Source: Alkalispirochaeta sp.
GTDB taxonomy: Bacteria; Spirochaetota; Spirochaetia; DSM-27196; Alkalispirochaetaceae
NCBI GenBank assembly: GCA_965601925.1
Contig: OZ271854.1
Coordinates: forward strand, 1,056,001 to 1,120,000
Direction: 5' to 3'
DNA: 64,000 nt
This document shows positions 2,588 through 46,704 of this stretch, in pieces. The notes beneath the pieces are model-generated. The model saw only the letters and a list, made by a program, of their open reading frames with translations. It had not been told where the DNA came from and searched no databases. Within the stretch, counting starts at the first letter, position 1; the number at the start of each line of letters is the position of its first letter. A program made the translations under genes and the position numbers.

Positions 2588-3454
2588 ATGAACAGAACAC
2601 TTCGATTGAACGGCGTCGAGATCGCAACGGAATCGTTCGGGAGTCCGTCGGACCCCGCTGTACTTCTCATTATGGGTGCAATGGCGTCCATGCTGTGGTG
2701 GCCGGATGAATTTTGCAGACGCTTGAGTCATGCCAGCTTTTTCGTCATTCGCTATGATAATCGAGATACCGGCCTTTCTACGTGGTACGAGCCGGGCGAG
2801 TCGTCATACGGATTTGACGACATGGCCGCCGACGCGGTCGCCGTGCTTGATGAGTATGGTGTCCCAAAGGCCCATATCGTCGGCATGTCTTTGGGAGGCG
2901 GAATCGGTCAACTGACCGCTTTGCAGTATCCGGAAAAGGTCGCCTCGCTGACCGCCGTCAGCACTTCGCCGTTCGGCATCGATACCTCAGATGTGCCTCA
3001 AACTACGGAGGCTTACATGGCCCATGCCGCCGGCTTCTCCGCAATAGATTGGAATAACAGAGCACAGGTCATCGATTTTTTGGTGAAGGACGCTCGGATG
3101 CTCGCCGGTTCCGCCGGACCATTTGATGAGAGGGCCGTGCGCGCCTTTGTTGAGCGAGATTATGACCGAGCTCGAAACTATCCGAGCGTCACAAATCACT
3201 TTGCCTTGCAAGAGGGAGAGGCTTGGCACGGTCGGCTTCCCGAACTTCGCCCGCCTCTGTTGGTCATACATGGCACGGAGGACCCTATCTTTCCCATCGA
3301 TCATGGCCTTCTGTTGGCTCGGACCGTACCGGGGACTCCGTTTGTCCGGCTGGACGGGGGCGGCCACGAGCTTCACGACGTTCATTGGGACACGATTATC
3401 TCGTCCATCGCCGAGCACGGGAGAAACGCAGCAGCCGGTAGAGATGCAAGATAG
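2588..3454 (+). CDS. Alpha/beta hydrolase, EstX/EstT/RdmC-like esterase
   Basis: ESFG.P.DPAVLLIMGA, RYDNRDTG, nucleophile GMSLG, HGTEDP, GHE. Confidence 0.88.
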   Translation: MNRTLRLNGVEIATESFGSPSDPAVLLIMGAMASMLWWPDEFCRRLSHASFFVIRYDNRDTGLSTWYEPGESSYGFDDMAADAVAVLDEYGVPKAHIVGMSLGGGIGQLTALQYPEKVASLTAVSTSPFGIDTSDVPQTTEAYMAHAAGFSAIDWNNRAQVIDFLVKDARMLAGSAGPFDERAVRAFVERDYDRARNYPSVTNHFALQEGEAWHGRLPELRPPLLVIHGTEDPIFPIDHGLLLARTVPGTPFVRLDGGGHELHDVHWDTIISSIAEHGRNAAAGRDAR

Positions 3455-3501
3455 GCCAGATACGATGCACGCGGTACGCGACAGCCAATGGAGGAATGCA
3501 T

Positions 3502-4159
3502 ATGACACGAGTTCGAGTGGAAGGGTTTTCCATCTCCCTCGACGGATACGGAGCAGGCCCGAATCAGGACATCGATAATCCACTCGGGGTCGGTGGGACG
3601 GACCTACATCCATGGCTCTATCCGACACGCACGTTCAGGCGGGCCCTGTTTGACAAAGACGGCGGCACGACGGGAGTCGACGATGATTTCGCCGCTCGTG
3701 GCTTTCAGAATATTGGAGCCTGGATTCTCGGAAGAAATATGTTCGGACCAATTCGCGGTCCTTGGCCGGAGGAGAACTGGAACGGCTGGTGGGGGGGACA
3801 GCCCGCCCTATCATGTCCCGGTCTTCGTCTTGACGCACCACGCGCGGCCGCCGGTCGAGATGAAGGGCAACACGACCTTTCATTTCGTCACCGGCGGCGT
3901 TCACGAGGCGCTTGACCGGGCACGCGAGGCGGCGGGCGGGATGGACGTACGCATCGGCGGTGGGCCCAACACGATCCGGCAGTATCTTTACGAGGGCCTG
4001 ATCGATGAGCTCCACATTGCCATTACGCCGGTTCTGTTGGGCGATGGAGAACGACTGTTTGAAGGGGTGGACGTGCGCGCATTGGGATACGAATGCGTTG
4101 AGTTTGTGGCGTCGGATAAGGCTACTCACGTCGTTCTGCGGAACCGACGGAGTGCATGA
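3502..4159 (+). pseudogene. RibD C-terminal/DHFR-like protein, frameshifted in G7 run at 3791-3797
   Basis: The N-half (FSISLDGYGAGP...GWWG) and C-half (DSPPYHVPVFVLTH...) are in different frames. Removing one G restores WWGDSPPYH. May be a sequencing error. Confidence 0.85.
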
Positions 4160-38135: not shown

Positions 38136-38141
38136 GTGTGT

Positions 38142-38717
38142 ATGCGAGAAGAGATTTTGCGTTTGGCACGGAACCAACTTATGTCCGGGGGGTACGACAA
38201 TCTCAGTTTCGCCGCGATTGCGGACTCGCTCTCTACGACGCGCGCCAATATACACTATCACTTCAAGAACAAAGAGGGATTAGCGACCGAGGCGACAAAG
38301 GCGCACATCGCCGAGGAGCTCGATCTCATGAAGTCCGTAGCACAGCGATACCACGACGATTTCGCCGCCTTCATTGCGGATGTCGAAGCGCGGTTTGTCT
38401 CCATGATCAAGAAGAAGAGGGACAAAAAAATAGACATCTGCAGTCAACTGATCCGCACGGACGGTGTGCCCGCTGAGCTTACCAAGCTCGCGCAAGATCA
38501 CTTCAAGGATGTTCATGATCTCTGTGAAGAGGTGATCGTCGCCTCGCAGCGGGCGGGAACGATACAAAGCGATATCCGTGCATCCGACTTAGCGGCCCAA
38601 GCGGTTGCGATGATGTTGGGAGTGATTCAGTTGGCGATCGTGTACCACGACCGCGGCGGTGACTCGTCGGAACGGATCCGCGGCCTTTTGACCGGCTGGG
38701 TTCGGAGCTATGTATAA
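38142..38717 (+). CDS. TetR-family regulator (NemR-like)
   Basis: GYDNLSFAAIA...ANIHYHFKNKE. Confidence 0.92.
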   Translation: MREEILRLARNQLMSGGYDNLSFAAIADSLSTTRANIHYHFKNKEGLATEATKAHIAEELDLMKSVAQRYHDDFAAFIADVEARFVSMIKKKRDKKIDICSQLIRTDGVPAELTKLAQDHFKDVHDLCEEVIVASQRAGTIQSDIRASDLAAQAVAMMLGVIQLAIVYHDRGGDSSERIRGLLTGWVRSYV

Positions 38718-38732
38718 AAAATTTATCGACAT

Positions 38733-38752
38733 ACTTACTTACATGAAAGTTA
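38733..38752. promoter_or_regulatory. Second TetR operator copy ACTTACTTACATGAAAGTTA
   Basis: One mismatch to the copy at 38112-38131; lies upstream of the redoxin/epimerase genes. Confidence 0.75.
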
Positions 38753-38914
38753 GCAGAAGGAGGCTCATCACATCGTAACGCTCAGATTGCAACCGACCAC
38801 CACCAAGAAAGAGAGGAAGTATGATACGCATTAACAAACGCACATTCGCTACCGCTTCCGGCAGCGACGATTTTTTCGGTCCGTATGACGCAACCAACGT
38901 TCGAGGCGGTCGTC

Positions 38915-39442
38915 ATGTCCGCGTTTAACCGACTAATACCCGGCGCACCCTTCCCCGACATCACGCTTTCCGCAACCGACGGCTCACGGATTGTCCTTGG
39001 GGAGAGAGGGTGGCGCGCGATCTTTGTGATACGCGGCGCCCATTGCGGAATCTGTCGCGCCTATCTCGGCCAGCTTGAAAAGAGACGCTCCGCGTGGGAG
39101 ACGAGGGGCATCGATGTCCTCGTTGCCAGCGCCGACTCGGTGGAGAAGAGCCGCACATTCATAGCCGAGGCGGGGTACCGGGGACGCGCGGCGTGCGACT
39201 TGGACGTGCCCGCCATGCGGGCCCTCGGCCTGTGGATGACCGGGCCGGAGGCGTCGGAGCTCGACTACGTTCATCCCGAGCCCGGCTTTTTTCTGATCGA
39301 TCCCGACGGCAACGTGGCCGCCGCCGAGGCGTCGACCATGCCCTCGGTTCGACCGGACCTCGAGTGGCTCGATAAAAGTCTGACATACGTCGTCGAACAC
39401 GATGTGCGGCCGCCCTACGGCCGCTATGGGGTGGCGGCATGA
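38915..39442 (+). CDS. Redoxin/AhpC-TSA-family protein
   Basis: RGAHCGIC CxxC motif, EPGFFLIDPDG, RPDL. Confidence 0.88.
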   Translation: MSAFNRLIPGAPFPDITLSATDGSRIVLGERGWRAIFVIRGAHCGICRAYLGQLEKRRSAWETRGIDVLVASADSVEKSRTFIAEAGYRGRAACDLDVPAMRALGLWMTGPEASELDYVHPEPGFFLIDPDGNVAAAEASTMPSVRPDLEWLDKSLTYVVEHDVRPPYGRYGVAA

Positions 39443-40347
39443 GCGGACCACTGACGCGTAACGGAGAAACGGTCCTGCTCACCGGGGCGACGGGGTACGT
39501 CGGATCGGTTGTCGCCGAGAAATTGTGCAAAGCGGGATATGTGGTGCGAGGCCTCACGCGCTCCGAACGAAAGGCGCCCATCCTCGAGGCGGCGGGAATC
39601 GAGCCGATCGTCGGGGATGTCGGAGATATCGACCTCATGGCCGAGGCGGCAGCGGGCGTAAACGCGATCGTTCACACGGCGGCGCCGAACGCCCCGGTCC
39701 CGGGGGAGAGTATGGCGCAAATAATCGCCGGAGCGGCTCGCGCCGTGGAGCTGGCAGCCGATTTGGCCGCCACGAACAACGCCCGCCTGATCGTCACGAG
39801 CGGGGTCTCGTTATACGGGCCGACCGGGGGCCGCGTCGTAGACGAGACCGCACCGCTACAAACACCGCCGTTCGCCGCCCCCCTTGCCGAGGCGGAGACC
39901 ACATTTGCCGAACGGGGCCGTGCGTATGTCCTCCGGTTAGGCGTCGTGTACGGCCGCGATCAGAGCGCCCCGATGCGCGCGCTCATCGACGGCGTCCGTG
40001 AACGGGGTGCACCCGTCATGATAGACCACGCGAATCGACTTTCGGTTGCGCACGTCGACGATCTCGCGGACCTCTATACCGCTATTCTTGAGGCCGACGC
40101 ACCGCCGACGGTCGTGAACGGCGTCACCGCTATCCTCACGTGGCCCAGGGTGATGGACGCCGTCGCCACGGCGGCGGGTATCTCGGCGGAACCGGAAACC
40201 ATCACGGCGGAGGAAGCGGGAGCGTTGGGCGGTCCGGCGATATACATGGCTATGGATATGGCCGTCTCGGGCGAGCTGGCACGGCGGACCCTTGGATGGC
40301 TACCGAAAGCGCCGGACTTTGAAACCGATCTGACGAGAGGATCGTGA
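39439..40347 (+). CDS. NAD-dependent epimerase/dehydratase-family protein
   Basis: TGATGYVG, HVDDLADLY, ARRTLGW.P. Confidence 0.9.
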   Translation: MSGPLTRNGETVLLTGATGYVGSVVAEKLCKAGYVVRGLTRSERKAPILEAAGIEPIVGDVGDIDLMAEAAAGVNAIVHTAAPNAPVPGESMAQIIAGAARAVELAADLAATNNARLIVTSGVSLYGPTGGRVVDETAPLQTPPFAAPLAEAETTFAERGRAYVLRLGVVYGRDQSAPMRALIDGVRERGAPVMIDHANRLSVAHVDDLADLYTAILEADAPPTVVNGVTAILTWPRVMDAVATAAGISAEPETITAEEAGALGGPAIYMAMDMAVSGELARRTLGWLPKAPDFETDLTRGS

Positions 40348-40459
40348 GGAAGCGTCCGCGGGTACGGAGCGCGACGCGCGGCCCGCTCCGCGGTTCTCAG
40401 CCTTCGCCGACGAGAGCGGATTCACTCCCCGCCTCGCCGGCGCAATGAACTCGCAGTAG

Positions 40460-41374
40460 TTACACGCGACGGTATGAGAGGGCGCGCGCCTTCTCGTACC
40501 CCAATATCTCGTCCCGCTTCAACTCCCCCGGATCGACCGAAGAGCCGAACCGAGCGGCGAGCTTAGCCTGCACCGTATCGCGAAACGCCTCCAAGGTCGG
40601 GCGCGCGCCGGTGAGCTCCTCGACGGAGGTCATCGGTTCGACAACCTTGTCCTTCACCTCCGGTGTCACCCATACCACCTTGAAAAAGTCGTCGGTTTTT
40701 AACGGAGCGAGGAAGACGACGCAGTTCACCACATAGAGATTCTCGATCTCGCTAACGAGAATCGTTGCAAGTTTTCTTCCGCGGGCGCGCACACTACCGC
40801 GATGTTTGTACCACGCCTCTTCGGCGCCCAGCTCGTGGAGCGTTTCGACCAACAGCTCACCGGCGGCGCGGAACGCCCCGTCGCCGGAGCCGAATGTGTG
40901 CTTGTCGACGACGAACTGGACGTTGGCGGTCGCCTCCGGGGTAAGGAAGACGAGCGTACGCTGACCGGTGATGATCACATGTTCCAACGCCGGCGTGTCC
41001 TCCCGGATCTCGTTGATCAGGTTGACGGAGCTCGCCAGGGTCACGATGGCACGGGCACCGGAGTCGTTGAGGATATGGGTGATCTCGCGCCCTTTGTACG
41101 TGGTATTGAAAGGCACCGCCGTACCGCCCAACTTCTGGATGCCGAAGAAGGTGTACACGAACTCCGGGATGTTGGGAAGCATGATCGCGACGCGATCTCC
41201 CGGCTCGATTCCGAGGCCGACGAGACCGTTTGCGACGCGATTGGCATTTTTATCCAACTCCTGATAGGTAATCGTCCGCCCGGCGACGCGCAACGCCTCT
41301 TTTTTCTTGTACGCGGCGGTGACGGTCTCGAGCATTCGGCCGATCGTCATCGGTTCGGTTACGGGGGAACTCAT
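40460..41374 (-). CDS. Fusion: acyl-CoA ligase N-terminal part (aa 1-137) + LplA-like C-terminal half
   Basis: TYQELDKNANRVANGL, GDRVAIMLPN, LNDSGA (ANL A1/A2), no P-loop. Then VRARGRKLA, EVKDKVVEPMTSVEELTG, GEL..DE resembling the LplA C-half. Confidence 0.8.
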   Translation of the reverse strand: MSSPVTEPMTIGRMLETVTAAYKKKEALRVAGRTITYQELDKNANRVANGLVGLGIEPGDRVAIMLPNIPEFVYTFFGIQKLGGTAVPFNTTYKGREITHILNDSGARAIVTLASSVNLINEIREDTPALEHVIITGQRTLVFLTPEATANVQFVVDKHTFGSGDGAFRAAGELLVETLHELGAEEAWYKHRGSVRARGRKLATILVSEIENLYVVNCVVFLAPLKTDDFFKVVWVTPEVKDKVVEPMTSVEELTGARPTLEAFRDTVQAKLAARFGSSVDPGELKRDEILGYEKARALSYRRV

Positions 41375-42918
41375 GATGCATCTCCTTGGGCGTCGGCTAC
41401 ATCGGATGAACGCTCGATCAGCCGGTCGTCGGTCGCCTCTCCGGTGAGCTCGCGGCGTAGGATTTTGCCGGTCGCGCTCTTTGGAAGGCTTTCGACGAAC
41501 TCGACGAGCTTGGGAACCTTGTACGCCGCCAGGTTGGCGTGACAGTACTCGGTGATGGCGCTCGTCTCGATAGTCTCTCCCGGTTTCAATACGACGAACG
41601 CTTTCACCGCCTCGCGGTCGCGCTTGTCCGTCACCGCGACGATCGCCGCCTCTTCCACCGCGGGATGGGTCATGATCGTCTCCTCCACCTCCCGCGGGGA
41701 GATGTTAAACCCGCCGCGAATGATGAGATCCTTCTTGCGATCGGTAATGAAGTAGTACCCGTCAGTGTCCCGATAGCCGAGATCGCCGGTGTGAAACCAC
41801 CCCTCCACGATCGCCTCCCCGGTCGCCTCCTCGTTTTTCCAGTAGCCCGGCGTAACGACTGCGGCGCTGATGACGATCTCGCCGACCTCGCCGTCGCCGA
41901 GGATGGTGCCGTCGTCGTCCATGATCGCCATCTCGACCGGTCCCGCGGGCGGCCCGATCGATCCCTCCTTGTACGCATCGCCGCTCGGATTGAGGCTGAC
42001 CGCGGAGGTCGTTTCAGTGAGGCCGTACCCCTCGTTAATGCGCGTCTGAAAGAGCTCCTCGAACTCGCGGATCGTCGTGACCGGAAGCGGCGCACCGCCG
42101 GAGACGCACGTATGGAGCGAGGTGGGGATCGATGTGTTTCGCACGCGCGCAAACTGCAACAGGTGCTGGTACATCGTAGGAATCGCGATGAGAATCGTGG
42201 CGTGATTCTCGCTGATCGCATCCAGAAGATTGCGTGGGGAGTAGTGCGAAACGAGGATCATCGTCGACGCATTGAAGAGTCCCGCAACCAACCCGTTGGA
42301 TAGTCCGTAGACGTGAAAGAGCGGCAGCACGAGCACGACACGATCGTCTTTGGTCATCTCGAATATCGTCGGGACGACCTCGGCGCACTGCGAATGGAAG
42401 TTGCGGTGAGTGAGCATCACGCCTTTCGGCTTGCCGGTCGTACCGGAGGTGTACAGCAACACGGCGGGCTGTTCGAGATCGACCTCCCTCGCCTTGAAGC
42501 GGTCGGAGGAGCGGACCATGAGCTCCGCCAAGTTGATCGTATCGACCGGCGCGGCGCCCGATCGGCCGCTTCGCGCCTGCTTCGCGACCGTGATACCTTC
42601 TTGCTGTGCGGCCTCTTGGTCTATGCGAAGGTCGGCGCCGGCTACCATACCCTTGCCGGTGACGCCCTGAACGACGACCGTGTCGGGCAACCGTTCATTC
42701 GACAACATATATTTACCGGCGATTCGCCCCTCCGCGAGGCCGGTTGCGTACGCGACGATATCCGCCGCGTCACCGTCGGGATTGTAGAGAAGTCGCCACC
42801 CCGGATGCGTTGCGTCGGATTCGGTCGAACCGTCGCCCTGTAGACTCTGCGTGTCTCGTCCCTCGGGACGCTCCGACGGGGCCGGTCGACCCTTTTTCCG
42901 TCTTCCGAATAGTGCCAT
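41371..42918 (-). CDS. Fusion: LplA-like N-terminal half + acyl-CoA ligase catalytic core and C-terminal domain
   Basis: WRLL...LPDTVVV...IDQEAAQQEGITVAKQ, then YTSGTTGKPKG, YGLTET, FHTGDLG, DRKKDLIIRGG, LPKSATGKILRR. Confidence 0.85.
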   Translation of the reverse strand: MALFGRRKKGRPAPSERPEGRDTQSLQGDGSTESDATHPGWRLLYNPDGDAADIVAYATGLAEGRIAGKYMLSNERLPDTVVVQGVTGKGMVAGADLRIDQEAAQQEGITVAKQARSGRSGAAPVDTINLAELMVRSSDRFKAREVDLEQPAVLLYTSGTTGKPKGVMLTHRNFHSQCAEVVPTIFEMTKDDRVVLVLPLFHVYGLSNGLVAGLFNASTMILVSHYSPRNLLDAISENHATILIAIPTMYQHLLQFARVRNTSIPTSLHTCVSGGAPLPVTTIREFEELFQTRINEGYGLTETTSAVSLNPSGDAYKEGSIGPPAGPVEMAIMDDDGTILGDGEVGEIVISAAVVTPGYWKNEEATGEAIVEGWFHTGDLGYRDTDGYYFITDRKKDLIIRGGFNISPREVEETIMTHPAVEEAAIVAVTDKRDREAVKAFVVLKPGETIETSAITEYCHANLAAYKVPKLVEFVESLPKSATGKILRRELTGEATDDRLIERSSDVADAQGDAS

Positions 42919-43297
42919 CTTCAAAAATTATGCGATGAATAGGCGTAGGTCAATAAAAAAACGGTCGCCGACCGAGTTAAAATTATAAAAGGGGTCGTTT
43001 TGTGCCCGCGGTCACCTCGATGCCGCGTTCCACCGGCGCGTCCGAAAAGTCCACCCCGAAAGTTGGAGCACGAGACGGACGCCCGGCCGGCCGCCGCCGA
43101 CTTCGCCGACGGAGCAAGGTCGCCGTCGAAGCGATTGAAAAAAGAAGGCTCGACGTGGCGCTGTCTGTACGGGATCCTCCCGGGTATGATTCGGTCATAA
43201 CGTGACGGAGGTGTGATATGCAACGAGTACTCGGCTCATCGAATATCAAAGTGAGCGCCATCGGCATGGGTGAAGTGATCTGCGTCGAGAGGGAGCC

Positions 43298-43990
43298 GTG
43301 ATGAAGGAGAAACCGGTTATCACCGCCGGGGAGGCGGTGGGCCACATACGGAACGGCGATACGATCATGGTGGGAGGCTTCATGGGAGTCGGCTCGCCTC
43401 CGGGACTTCTACGCTCTCTCAGGGAGTCGGGACGACGGGATTTAGTTCTCGTCTGTAGTGACAATGGTCTGTACCTAGGAGACGAGGACGAGGCGACCGG
43501 CGTCGCGTTGAACGTGCGGGCGCGTCAGTTTCGCCGCATCGTCTCCAGTCACATCGGCCTCAACAAGGAGACGCAGCGACAGATGATAACGGGCGAGACC
43601 GAGGTCGAGCTCGTTCCTCAAGGAACGTTGGCGGAACGCATACGAGCCGCCGGTGCCGGTCTCGGCGGTATCCTCACCCCCACCGGTATCGGGACTGAGG
43701 TTGCCGACGGCAAGGACGTGCTTCGGGTCGCCGGCCGCGACTACCTCTTGGAGCTCCCGATCCACGCCGACGTGACCCTTATCCGAGCGGCCAAGGCCGA
43801 CAGAGGAGGAAACCTCACCTACGCCGCCTCGGCCCGGAACTTCTGCCCCTTGATGGCTACGGCGGGTCGTACCGTCTTGGTGGAGGCGGACGAGATTGTA
43901 GAGGTCGGAGCGCTCGACCCGGAGGAGATCGTTACCCCCGGGATCTTCGTAGACTATCTGATTCAACGCGATGCGGGAAATGCGGTATGA
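43298..43990 (+). CDS. Family I CoA transferase subunit A (AtoD/ScoA-like)
   Basis: MVGGFMG, SHIGLN, PQGTLAERIRAAGAG, TPGIFVD. Confidence 0.95.
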   Translation: MMKEKPVITAGEAVGHIRNGDTIMVGGFMGVGSPPGLLRSLRESGRRDLVLVCSDNGLYLGDEDEATGVALNVRARQFRRIVSSHIGLNKETQRQMITGETEVELVPQGTLAERIRAAGAGLGGILTPTGIGTEVADGKDVLRVAGRDYLLELPIHADVTLIRAAKADRGGNLTYAASARNFCPLMATAGRTVLVEADEIVEVGALDPEEIVTPGIFVDYLIQRDAGNAV

Positions 43991-44649
43991 CATACACTCC
44001 GGACAAGACGAAAATCGCTCGACGGATCGCCGGTATGTTTTGTGACGGTGATGTAGTGAACCTGGGGATCGGGTTACCCACATTGGTGGGCAACTACATT
44101 CCCGATGACGTGGAGATTCTCCTCCAGTCTGAAAACGGCTTCCTCGGTTTGGGGCCGCAACCGCCCGCGGGGGAGGAGAACCCCGACCTCATAAATGCCG
44201 GGGCCGTCCCGGTGACCATTCTTCCGGGCGGGTGCTTCTTTGATTCCGCAGTCTCGTTCGGTATCATCCGCGGCGGCCATATCGACTATACGGTCCTCGG
44301 TGTTTTGGAGGTCGACCAGGAGGGCAACATCGCGAACTACAAAGTACCCGGCACAATGGTGCCCGGTATGGGGGGAGCCATGGATCTATTGACCGGTGCG
44401 CGGACGGTGATTGCCGCAACGGTTCATTTGGATAAGTCGGGTAACTCCAAGATGGTTACGCGGTGCTCTTTGCCCCTCACCGCCGCCGGAGAGGTGAATT
44501 ACGTGGTTACCGATGTCGGGCTGTTTGAGGTGGGAGAACGTCACTTCATCCTCAAGGAGTATTTTGCCCCGGCGACTCCGGAATGGATTGCGGAGGTGAC
44601 GCACGCCTCGGTTGCCGTCGCCGCCGATTGCCGGGAGTACCGATTCTGA
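43987..44649 (+). CDS. Family I CoA transferase subunit B (AtoA/ScoB-like)
   Basis: VNLGIGLPT, LQSENG (catalytic Glu), GMGGAMDL. Confidence 0.95.
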   Translation: MTYTPDKTKIARRIAGMFCDGDVVNLGIGLPTLVGNYIPDDVEILLQSENGFLGLGPQPPAGEENPDLINAGAVPVTILPGGCFFDSAVSFGIIRGGHIDYTVLGVLEVDQEGNIANYKVPGTMVPGMGGAMDLLTGARTVIAATVHLDKSGNSKMVTRCSLPLTAAGEVNYVVTDVGLFEVGERHFILKEYFAPATPEWIAEVTHASVAVAADCREYRF

Positions 44650-45521: not shown

Positions 45522-46532
45522 CTAACGCCGCACGGCCGCCGGCGGGGCGGTCGAGTCGCGCACCAGCAGTTCCGCCTGTCCGTCGTACTCCACGTTGGAT
45601 ATCGGGCGATCGTCGACGATATCGAATAGCATCGACGCCGCGGTCCTGCCGAGTTGATGGCGTGGGACGTGAATCGTCGTGAGCGTCGGACGAATCATCG
45701 TCGCGAGGGGGATATCGTCGAATCCGGTGATCGAGACCTCGTCCGGCACACGCACGCCGCGGTCGAGGCACTCGAGCATGGCGCCGACTGCCACGACGTC
45801 GTTGTAGCACGCCACGGCGGTAACGTCGTGTTCCAACATCTCAGCCATGGCTCGACGTCCCTCTTCTACCGTGAGGCGCTCGGTCTGCACCACCAACCGC
45901 GGATCAAACGCAATGTCGTTCGCCGACAATGCAGCACGGTAGCCGTTGAGTCGTTCGCAGTTACCCTCCCGACGAAAACCGAGATGACCGATAGCGCGAT
46001 GGCCGATCTCGACGAGATACCCGGTTGTGCGATACAGACCGTCGTTTCCCGGTATATGAAGGGTCGATGCGTTCCGTGGATGTTGACTGGTGATCACGAC
46101 GACGTGGTGGCGTTCGGCAATGGCACTCAGCTCTTCCTCGCCGAGGCGTGTGCCGCACAAGATCAAGCCGTCGACCTGCTTGTCCGCCATCGTCTCGATC
46201 AAGACGCGCTCCTGGGAGGGATCCTCGTCGGTATTTCCCAGCAGGACGCTGTATCCGCCGGCCTTGCACGCCTCTTGTACACCGTTGATGAACTCCGGGA
46301 AAAACGCGTCGGTGATCTGAGGGATGATCGTGGCGATTAGATGACTCTTACCCATCACCAGCGTTCGCGCCACGGCGTTCGGTCGGTATCCGAGCTCCTC
46401 GATGATGCGTTGCACCCGTTTTCGCGTATCTTCCGATATTTCGCCTTCGCCGTTGACGACTCGCGAGACGGTACGAATCGAGACGTTGGCATGACGGGCG
46501 ATATCTTTGAGCGTGGCTCGATTCTTCGGCAT
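45522..46532 (-). CDS. LacI-family repressor
   Basis: TLKDIARHANVSIRTVSRV, YRPNAVAR, SITGFDD, LTTI. Confidence 0.95.
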   Translation of the reverse strand: MPKNRATLKDIARHANVSIRTVSRVVNGEGEISEDTRKRVQRIIEELGYRPNAVARTLVMGKSHLIATIIPQITDAFFPEFINGVQEACKAGGYSVLLGNTDEDPSQERVLIETMADKQVDGLILCGTRLGEEELSAIAERHHVVVITSQHPRNASTLHIPGNDGLYRTTGYLVEIGHRAIGHLGFRREGNCERLNGYRAALSANDIAFDPRLVVQTERLTVEEGRRAMAEMLEHDVTAVACYNDVVAVGAMLECLDRGVRVPDEVSITGFDDIPLATMIRPTLTTIHVPRHQLGRTAASMLFDIVDDRPISNVEYDGQAELLVRDSTAPPAAVRR

Positions 46533-46568
46533 CGTTGTTCTTCTCTTCGGTGTAGTGTAGCCCGTTCC

Positions 46569-46580
46569 GCCGACGTTGGC
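46569..46580. promoter_or_regulatory. LacI-type operator GCCGACGTTGGC
   Basis: CG-centred near-palindrome just upstream of the LacI gene. Confidence 0.65.
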
Positions 46581-46639
46581 AATTTCGTATTTCAGCCGGC
46601 CGATCACGATTCCAAAACGTGAAGTATCGACATCATTCC

Positions 46640-46704
46640 TTGACAATAAACGTCTCCGTGGTAGTATGAGGATGTCCGCCAACGTAAACGTTTAGGTTGG
46701 CGGA
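46640..46704 (+). promoter_or_regulatory. Promoter (TTGACA...TAGTAT) followed by operator TCCGCCAAC-N12-GTTGGCGGA
   Basis: 9-bp perfect inverted repeat at 46675-46704. Confidence 0.75.

Follow-up and report, generated by a model that had tools for sequence, protein, structure and literature searches.

A conserved spirochaete gene pair that cross-fuses the halves of an ANL ligase and of a lipoate-ligase-like domain

Introduction

Both of the catalytic folds considered here, the insertion of domains into adenylation domains, and the splitting of lipoate ligases are already known. In the interrupted adenylation domains of nonribosomal peptide synthetases (NRPS), an auxiliary domain lies between motifs a2-a3, a6-a7 or a8-a9, and PMC8341866 documents the a2-a3 loop as a site for embedded domains. 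Lipoate-ligase enzymes made of separate or rearranged parts include the bipartite LplA-LplB enzymes of the Thermoplasma type and circularly permuted lipoate ligases; NCBIfam holds models for the large and small lipoate ligase subunits and for the fused LplAB form, and 3r07 is a solved example. In mammals, a lipoate-activating enzyme of the ANL type, a medium-chain acyl-CoA (coenzyme A) synthetase of that family, and LIPT1, a non-adenylating homologue of LplA, are proposed to act in sequence via acyl-AMP. Passages of PMC7253636 describe LIPT1 as a half ligase, state that the accessory domain is needed for the synthesis of lipoyl-AMP, and doubt the physiological coupling of LIPT1 with the activating enzyme. 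Here we analyse two adjacent genes, A and B, found in a 64,000-nucleotide stretch of Alkalispirochaeta sp. DNA (GenBank assembly GCA_965601925.1, contig OZ271854.1, positions 1,056,001 to 1,120,000 of the forward strand; hereafter the window).

Our analysis shows that in this pair an ANL ligase and an LplA-family domain, which are unrelated catalytic folds, have each been split once and cross-fused. The ligase is interrupted between motifs A2 and A3, in the loop that joins them, and the LplA-like domain in what is the RRxxGGG loop of its intact relatives, so that A combines the N-part of the LplA-like domain with the C-part of the ligase, and B the N-part of the ligase with the C-part of the LplA-like domain. 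We put at about 80% the probability that A and B together form an obligate heterodimeric carboxylate-activating enzyme, with acyl-CoA as its more likely product.

The pair resembles the interrupted adenylation domains of NRPS in that a foreign catalytic domain lies in the a2-a3 loop of an ANL fold. In those enzymes, however, the insert is a methyltransferase joined by its own termini within a single chain of an NRPS module, whereas the LplA-like insert is entered at an internal loop, its natural termini being free, is spread over two genes and belongs to a stand-alone ligase behind a transporter. The pair thus shares with that class the a2-a3 position, but not the single chain, the NRPS context or the methyltransferase insert. 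LplA-LplB enzymes are split between the catalytic and accessory domains; in the A-B pair, in contrast, the cut runs through the catalytic domain, there is no accessory domain and the pieces are fused to another enzyme. The mammalian activating enzyme and LIPT1 are separate complete proteins, unlike the folds of A and B, which are predicted to be physically interlocked. Split inteins offer a topological analogy only: each product carries a host part and an insert part and the products must associate, but in the A-B pair the insert halves stand in the opposite order, the host N-part carrying the insert C-part. An intein proper was rejected, with no Hint or intein family detected in Pfam at E values up to 1 and no sign of splicing. 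The original prediction, made from the letters of the window, knew of no described system like this pair, and our search of open-access papers likewise found no description of it.

Results

An ANL ligase divided between two genes

The features of the pair, in window coordinates, are as follows.

41371..42924, minus strand: gene A, 517 aa counted from TTG at 42924; intact open reading frame
42799..42924, minus strand: variable basic tail, gene A residues 1-42; absent or short in most relatives
42565..42798, minus strand: LplA-like N-part, gene A residues 43-120; N-terminal third of the catalytic domain, WRLL ... VAKQARSG
42565 to 42555, minus strand: junction in gene A, between residue 120 (LplA-like end, nt 42565) and the residue at which the Pfam ligase match opens (124, nt 42555)
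41374..42555, minus strand: ANL ligase C-part, gene A residues 124-517; from the a2-a3 loop onward to the natural C-terminus
41371..41374, minus strand: ATGA, the gene A stop overlapping the gene B start
40460..41374, minus strand: gene B, 304 aa; intact open reading frame, ANL ligase N-part followed by LplA-like C-part
40964..41374, minus strand: ANL ligase N-part, gene B residues 1-137; natural N-terminus through A1 and A2 to HVIITG
40964/40963, minus strand: junction in gene B, residue 137/138
40463..40963, minus strand: LplA-like C-part, gene B residues 138-304; C-terminal two-thirds, with lysine K201

The two proteins match complementary parts of the same ligase models. Residues 17-135 of B match positions 3-124 of the 384 positions of Pfam AMP-binding (PF00501; E = 3.2e-33), and residues 124-362 of A match positions 151-384 (E = 2.9e-62), followed at residues 412-487 by AMP-binding_C (PF13193). 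Indeed, the best NCBIfam family is the same for A and for B, namely PRK06187 (531 positions), with residues 7-143 of B covering positions 6-142 and residues 107-498 of A covering positions 128-523. The C-part in gene A holds the P-loop, YGLTET, TGD, the hinge, the A10 lysine and the C-terminal domain; motifs A1-A2 lie in gene B, and A3 to A10 in gene A. The split between the genes costs the ligase no conserved motif. In the alignment of orthologues, T159-G168, E298-E304, G380 and D381, D395-K398, and G486 and K487 of A are invariant, the P-loop, YGLTET, TGD, the hinge DRKK and the GK lysine being among the invariant features. Motifs A1-A8 and a C-terminal domain with the A10 lysine, which define the ANL superfamily, are thus found only in A and B jointly; the fold of a single-polypeptide ANL enzyme is shared over two genes, both in the window and at the loci of relatives.

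These results agree with the original prediction on three counts: that the two reading frames are intact and overlap by ATGA, that B opens with the ligase part missing from A, and that the junctions lie at about 40965 and 42565, both within about 10 nt of those determined here.

Among the 20 loci fetched from the order to which the window genome belongs, the start of gene B lies between 14 nt before and 30 nt after the end of the gene A stop codon, overlapping the end of gene A in 12 and lying 2-30 nt beyond it in the remaining 8. The ATGA overlap and the tight spacing fit translational coupling of A and B. A conserved fusion of the two by read-through or frameshifting was rejected, because the position and the frame of the B start vary among relatives.

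Two halves of one LplA-like domain

The remaining pieces of A and B point to a single second fold. Residues 150-272 of B match positions 75-199 of the 200 positions of Pfam LplA-B_cat (PF21948), scoring 27.7 bits where the cut-off is 27. Among 1.84 billion representative proteins, a profile made from the B C-part found 66 matches: B-type proteins some 300 aa long, fragments, and intact proteins of 350-540 aa matching at about residues 81-245. The best intact match, P0137 (365 aa), scores 92.8 bits with LplA-B_cat; members of its cluster are named from metagenome-assembled genomes of Jordarchaeia/Freyarchaeota, and the related cluster P0140 comes from Sulfolobaceae. In BLASTP, residues 43-120 of A align with residues 5-79 of P0137 (32% identity, E = 3e-10) and residues 141-297 of B with residues 81-242 (32% identity, E = 2e-21), and from these end points the two pieces abut inside VVRRPIGG/G of P0137.

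Profile-profile comparison with the intact family of P0137 (A4) gave a match for the A N-part (97.2%, E = 3.8e-11) and for the B C-part (99.9%, E = 2.8e-35). When the two alignments were joined row by row, as the original prediction had proposed to do in silico, a single colinear match to positions 2-245 resulted (E = 6.9e-44, score 297.7), whereas the reversed order, B C-part before A N-part, matched through the B C-part alone (score 233.7). The intact family in turn matches the solved lipoate-protein ligases 6jom (E = 2.6e-35), 2ars, 3r07 and 1x2g (E = 3.9e-13), as well as the bovine lipoyltransferase 2e5a (E = 8.1e-9), and the module belongs to the fold of the LplA/LipB/BPL catalytic domain. 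The BLASTP and profile-profile results together uphold the earlier view of the foreign pieces as the N- and C-parts of one LplA-fold domain cut at the RRxxGGG loop, the LplA-like nature of the A N-part being demonstrated only through the intact relative P0137. A search of PDB sequences with the B C-part profile retrieved no lipoate ligase, its sole match (E = 0.48) being by chance; in a search of PDB with the profile of whole B, and with Foldseek on the model of B, ANL matches dominate, which makes both uninformative on the second domain.

The intact archaeal proteins of about 365 aa are the closest sequence relatives of the module and share with it the WRL start, the AWYKH..G...G(R/K)K motif and the PE..KDK motif. 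They differ in being a single chain with an intact RRxxGGG loop and an LplB-like C-terminal domain, and at one examined locus they have no ANL neighbour. No match to Lip_prot_lig_C, the accessory C-terminal (LplB-like) domain, was found in A or B with Pfam, and B ends at a position aligned to about residue 245 of P0137.

No fused single-chain form of the pair was present among the 66 profile matches (longest 541 aa), nor was one found among proteins of 533-2000 aa, which is weak evidence. Two proteins of 519-541 aa, P0161 and P0176, combine a full LplA-B_cat domain with Lip_prot_lig_C and DUF116, an unusual LplA fusion unrelated to the A-B pair.

A predicted A-B complex

When residues 40-517 of A were folded together with B, using alignments of our own, which makes the calibration of the score only rough, the complex scored 0.84, and the best of three controls 0.00; the benchmark mark was attained by 116 of 157 solved complexes and by 2 of 215 mismatched pairs. 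The runs agreed in at least 94% of contacts, with a pLDDT (predicted local distance difference test) of at least 88 for the partner. The interface predicted with confidence comprises almost the whole of A 40-119 and of B 132-302, plus both ligase parts. The model supports binding of A to B and, with the complementary coverage of the family models, the earlier suggestion that an A+B heterodimer would rebuild both folds.

Reciprocal swaps can in principle propagate, and the sequence does not forbid the halves of each A chain from pairing with two different B chains, to give filaments or larger rings. We regard such an open-ended assembly as very unlikely, since the model puts both complementations in one A:B pair with high confidence and the linkers are short at both junctions.

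Conservation of the pair

The B C-part is present in 34 of 41 relatives from the same genus, family and order, and in 23 of the 26 high-quality genomes among them. All 20 loci fetched from the order show the same order of parts (A N-part, A ligase part, B ligase part, B C-part), each junction abutting to the codon. In a phylum-wide sample of 401 genomes, 12 carry the B C-part: 4 from the order of the window genome, which is included, and 8 of the 17 sampled from another family, f27. Five of six fetched f27 loci have the same architecture, so that the pair and its breakpoints, which were to be sought in other genomes, recur in both groups. The sixth f27 locus (L070, G120:C1:2650366-2660857, about 2998-3582), from a complete genome, holds only what looks like a shortened remnant, made of the LplA-like C-part together with the final 30 residues belonging to the N-part of the ligase, and has no gene A nearby.

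Databases hold 123 homologues of B, sharing both Pfam domains or lengths, whose names place the family in Spirochaetota, with one cluster (P0215) in candidate division TA06. Public annotations read 'long-chain acyl-CoA synthetase', 'AMP-binding protein' or 'lipoate--protein ligase family protein, partial', the last including a record of 196 aa.

This distribution bears on whether the pair might be a misassembly, or the pseudogene remains of disrupted ligase and LplA genes, to which we assign a negligible likelihood. The window genome is one contig of 5.05 Mb. The four public runs found consist of contigs of one sample, probably the source sample, and so are non-independent; contigs assembled separately from two of the runs span 40300-43100 in one piece and without differences, and shorter contigs from a third run bridge each junction. 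The architecture is conserved in 25 of 26 fetched loci, including four other single-contig genomes, with both frames open and under constraint. The run contigs and the other genomes together dispose of misassembly, which had been named at the outset as a result that would overturn the reading.

A second A-B pair is present in the window genome at G000:C1:2339591-2342068, with about 55% identity to the window copy (locus L020, G000:C1:2338047-2342068 with its symporter). Within the genus two orthologous types seem apparent, with about 72-74% and about 54-57% identity to the window copy.

Genomic context and flanking sequences

In 19 of 21 loci, the window included in the count, the gene directly upstream of A encodes a sodium:solute symporter (SSS, PF00474) and has the same orientation. 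Among the f27 loci with the pair it is found upstream in four of five, the fifth ending at a contig edge. The symporter matches PF00474 at E of about 1e-28, and its best NCBIfam models, PanF, PutP and MctP, are all far below their cut-offs; for PanF, the pantothenate symporter model, the score is 134.6 bits against a cut-off of 328. The conserved unit of symporter, A and B therefore suggests uptake of a carboxylate followed by its activation. In the window genome the only orthologue of the conserved symporter adjoins the paralogous A-B pair. A canonical LplA (215 bits) and another full-length gene of the LplA-B_cat family (144 bits) are also present in the same genome.

Upstream of gene A in the window are about 370 nt of non-coding DNA and then divergent genes for CoA-transferase subunits. 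The neighbours of the window copy, listed below, are conserved in none of the other loci, and the comparison of loci showed no gene for an acceptor protein conserved near the pair.

38136-40347, plus strand: TetR regulator, AhpC/redoxin-like gene and NAD-dependent epimerase; downstream of B, convergent
43298-44649, plus strand: two CoA-transferase subunit genes (PF01144); divergent from A
45522-46682, minus strand: LacI-type regulator

Of the two candidate starts of gene A, the ATG at 42918 (515 aa) is the likelier, in agreement with the N-termini of relatives in an alignment of A proteins; many orthologues of A begin 1-10 residues ahead of the conserved WRL. In most relatives (loci L015-L034) the very N-terminus of B carries a basic motif, M(x)LFG(R/K)KK. 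A similar motif opens those A proteins that have an extended N-terminus, the window A among them (MALFGRRKKG, 42890-42918). One guess is that it makes contact with the membrane or with the transporter.

A terminator-like hairpin with a T run stands just upstream of gene A (42962-42974, minus strand). After it the hexamers TTGACC and CATAAT were seen by eye, about 8 nt ahead of the gene A ATG (42925-42960). A promoter scan of 40200-43400 gave no sigma-70-like site, and the TTGACC/CATAAT pair was not accepted, its spacer being too short. The leader of gene A could be very short.

Residues kept, lost and gained in the LplA-like module

The lysine of the G(R/K)K motif has a catalytic role in the LplA family. 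Its counterpart in B, K201, is invariant; it aligns with K141 of P0137, itself invariant in the intact family and aligned to the lysine of GKKVSG in 6jom. Other features of the family are lost. The adenylate-binding loop RRxxGGG is not intact, as the chains cross inside it, and at the positions aligned to its RR pair the window has K/Q, while relatives vary. Ser or Ala replaces in B the Asp that is invariant among intact members (D134 of P0137), and the glycine that follows the lysine motif of LplA is lost. In addition, residues 64-75 of A (about 42712-42747) form an invariant stretch, AEGRIAGKYxLS, which is absent from the intact relatives and contains an insertion of 7 residues compared with them. 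Further invariant residues lie at the chain crossing, namely R118, G120 and R121 in A, together with G137 and R139. The Arg and Lys of AEGRIAGKYxLS could, with the invariant Arg residues at the crossing, mark a new binding site.

The losses raise the question of whether the LplA-like halves form a dead scaffold with no catalytic role, whose sole task would be to clamp the two ligase fragments together as a relic of an accidental rearrangement. Such a scaffold would fit the loss of the RR pair, of the conserved Asp and of the glycine that follows the lysine motif; consistent with it, too, the Pfam score of the B C-part is just above the cut-off and its profile retrieves no solved lipoate ligase by sequence. 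The module is, however, conserved as much as the ligase or more (mean column identity being 66% for the B C-part and 65% for the A N-part, against 57% for whole A). It also shows invariant motifs that are new, AEGRIAGKYxLS and, at the junction, R118/G120/R121, and keeps the family lysine invariant. We consider a dead scaffold doubtful. Judged by its sequence, the LplA-like module is under strong constraint and has lost hallmarks of self-adenylation, and we take it to be functional.

One possible role would parallel the mammalian enzymes. The ANL part could make only an acyl-adenylate, for example of lipoate, octanoate or another imported acid, and the LplA-like part, as a 'half ligase' unable to adenylate, could pass the acyl group on to an acceptor protein's lysine; the pair would then be the bacterial equivalent, fused physically, of an activating enzyme and a lipoyltransferase that are separate proteins. 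The family lysine is retained, the RR pair is not conserved and the chain crossing takes the place of its loop, an accessory C-terminal domain present in the closest intact relatives is absent, and the crossing sets the ligase beside the active-site loop of the LplA-like domain. Among models for the upstream symporter PanF is the top one, though far below its cut-off. Passages of PMC7253636, in which the making of lipoyl-AMP requires the accessory domain and LIPT1 is a half ligase, make such a hand-off plausible. Against it, the ligase retains the hinge and the C-terminal domain typical of CoA ligases, the Asp equivalent to D134 of P0137 is Ser or Ala, the genome already has a canonical LplA and a second LplA-B_cat-family gene, and no acceptor protein gene is conserved nearby; two diverged paralogous pairs in one genome also fit diversification of CoA-ligase substrates better. 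We think the hand-off unlikely. The same holds, in our estimate, for the related reading of the pair as an interlocked enzyme in which the ANL ligase would have taken over the adenylation half-reaction and the adenylate of the imported acid would be passed over the shared junction to the LplA-like site, to acylate a protein lysine or another amine.

Discussion

We favour the reading of A and B as one heterodimeric carboxylate-activating enzyme. Coupled translation would supply both chains together, and their pairing would complete both folds side by side, tied at a single point where two linkers cross. The ligase part would most likely activate the acid imported by the symporter, giving an acyl-adenylate and then probably an acyl-CoA, and the LplA-like module may serve in the binding of substrate or adenylate, in regulation or in acyl transfer. 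We infer the heterodimer in vivo, the class of substrate and CoA as the acceptor.

Besides the rough calibration of the complex score, several points weigh against this reading. The first 123 residues of A have no Pfam match by themselves. Against 29 canonical LplA orthologues of the same order, hhalign placed the A N-part in the wrong region (E = 0.16), the corresponding values being 4.1e-4 for the B C-part and 3.4e-4 for the joined alignment; the test is decisive only with the intact archaeal family, and not the canonical orthologues, as template. The complex score could in part stem from single-chain ANL and LplA structures that the model has memorised, the chains amounting to halves of folds for which many such structures are solved, and a closed 1:1 dimer and an open-ended A-B-A-B assembly would look alike to the methods used. 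The window copy and one other locus are without the upstream symporter, which makes the link to a transporter indirect for the window copy. Finally, no acyl-CoA-using genes are conserved downstream in the operon, leaving CoA as the acceptor without support from the context.

As to the origin of the pair, the simplest single event would be insertion of a fragment of ligase DNA into the RRxxGGG loop of an LplA-like gene. The fragment might have begun in the a2-a3 loop of one ligase copy and ended in that loop of a second copy in tandem, or have come from a circularised ligase gene opened there, and one insertion would yield both chimeric genes at once. We propose this origin because the natural termini of the ligase and of the LplA-like domain are all kept and the gene order is A then B. 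Alternatively, a single-chain ligase with a permuted insert might have undergone tandem duplication and trimming. Neither the 66 profile matches nor the search for longer proteins contained evolutionary intermediates. An older partnership of LplA and ligase is unsupported: in the one Jordarchaeia locus examined, of five retrieved from one lineage, the intact LplA-like gene has no ANL neighbour.

The pair is apparently undescribed as a conserved arrangement in which two unrelated catalytic folds are reciprocally cross-fused, neither protein holding a complete domain, and present annotations, which treat both genes as ordinary or truncated, miss this architecture. It offers a natural model for fragment complementation, for domain insertion and for the way in which gene rearrangement can generate obligate heteromers. 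It also shows that chain breaks and crossings are tolerated both in the a2-a3 loop of ANL enzymes and in the RRxxGGG loop of LplA-type enzymes, a useful property for protein engineering. Were the hand-off true, it would constitute a new route of protein acylation or cofactor salvage, and an interlocked enzyme working in this way would be the first example in nature of a reciprocal exchange of fragments between two enzymes across two genes. Should the LplA-like module prove catalytic, the pair could bring to light a new acyl-transfer chemistry tied to a dedicated uptake system.

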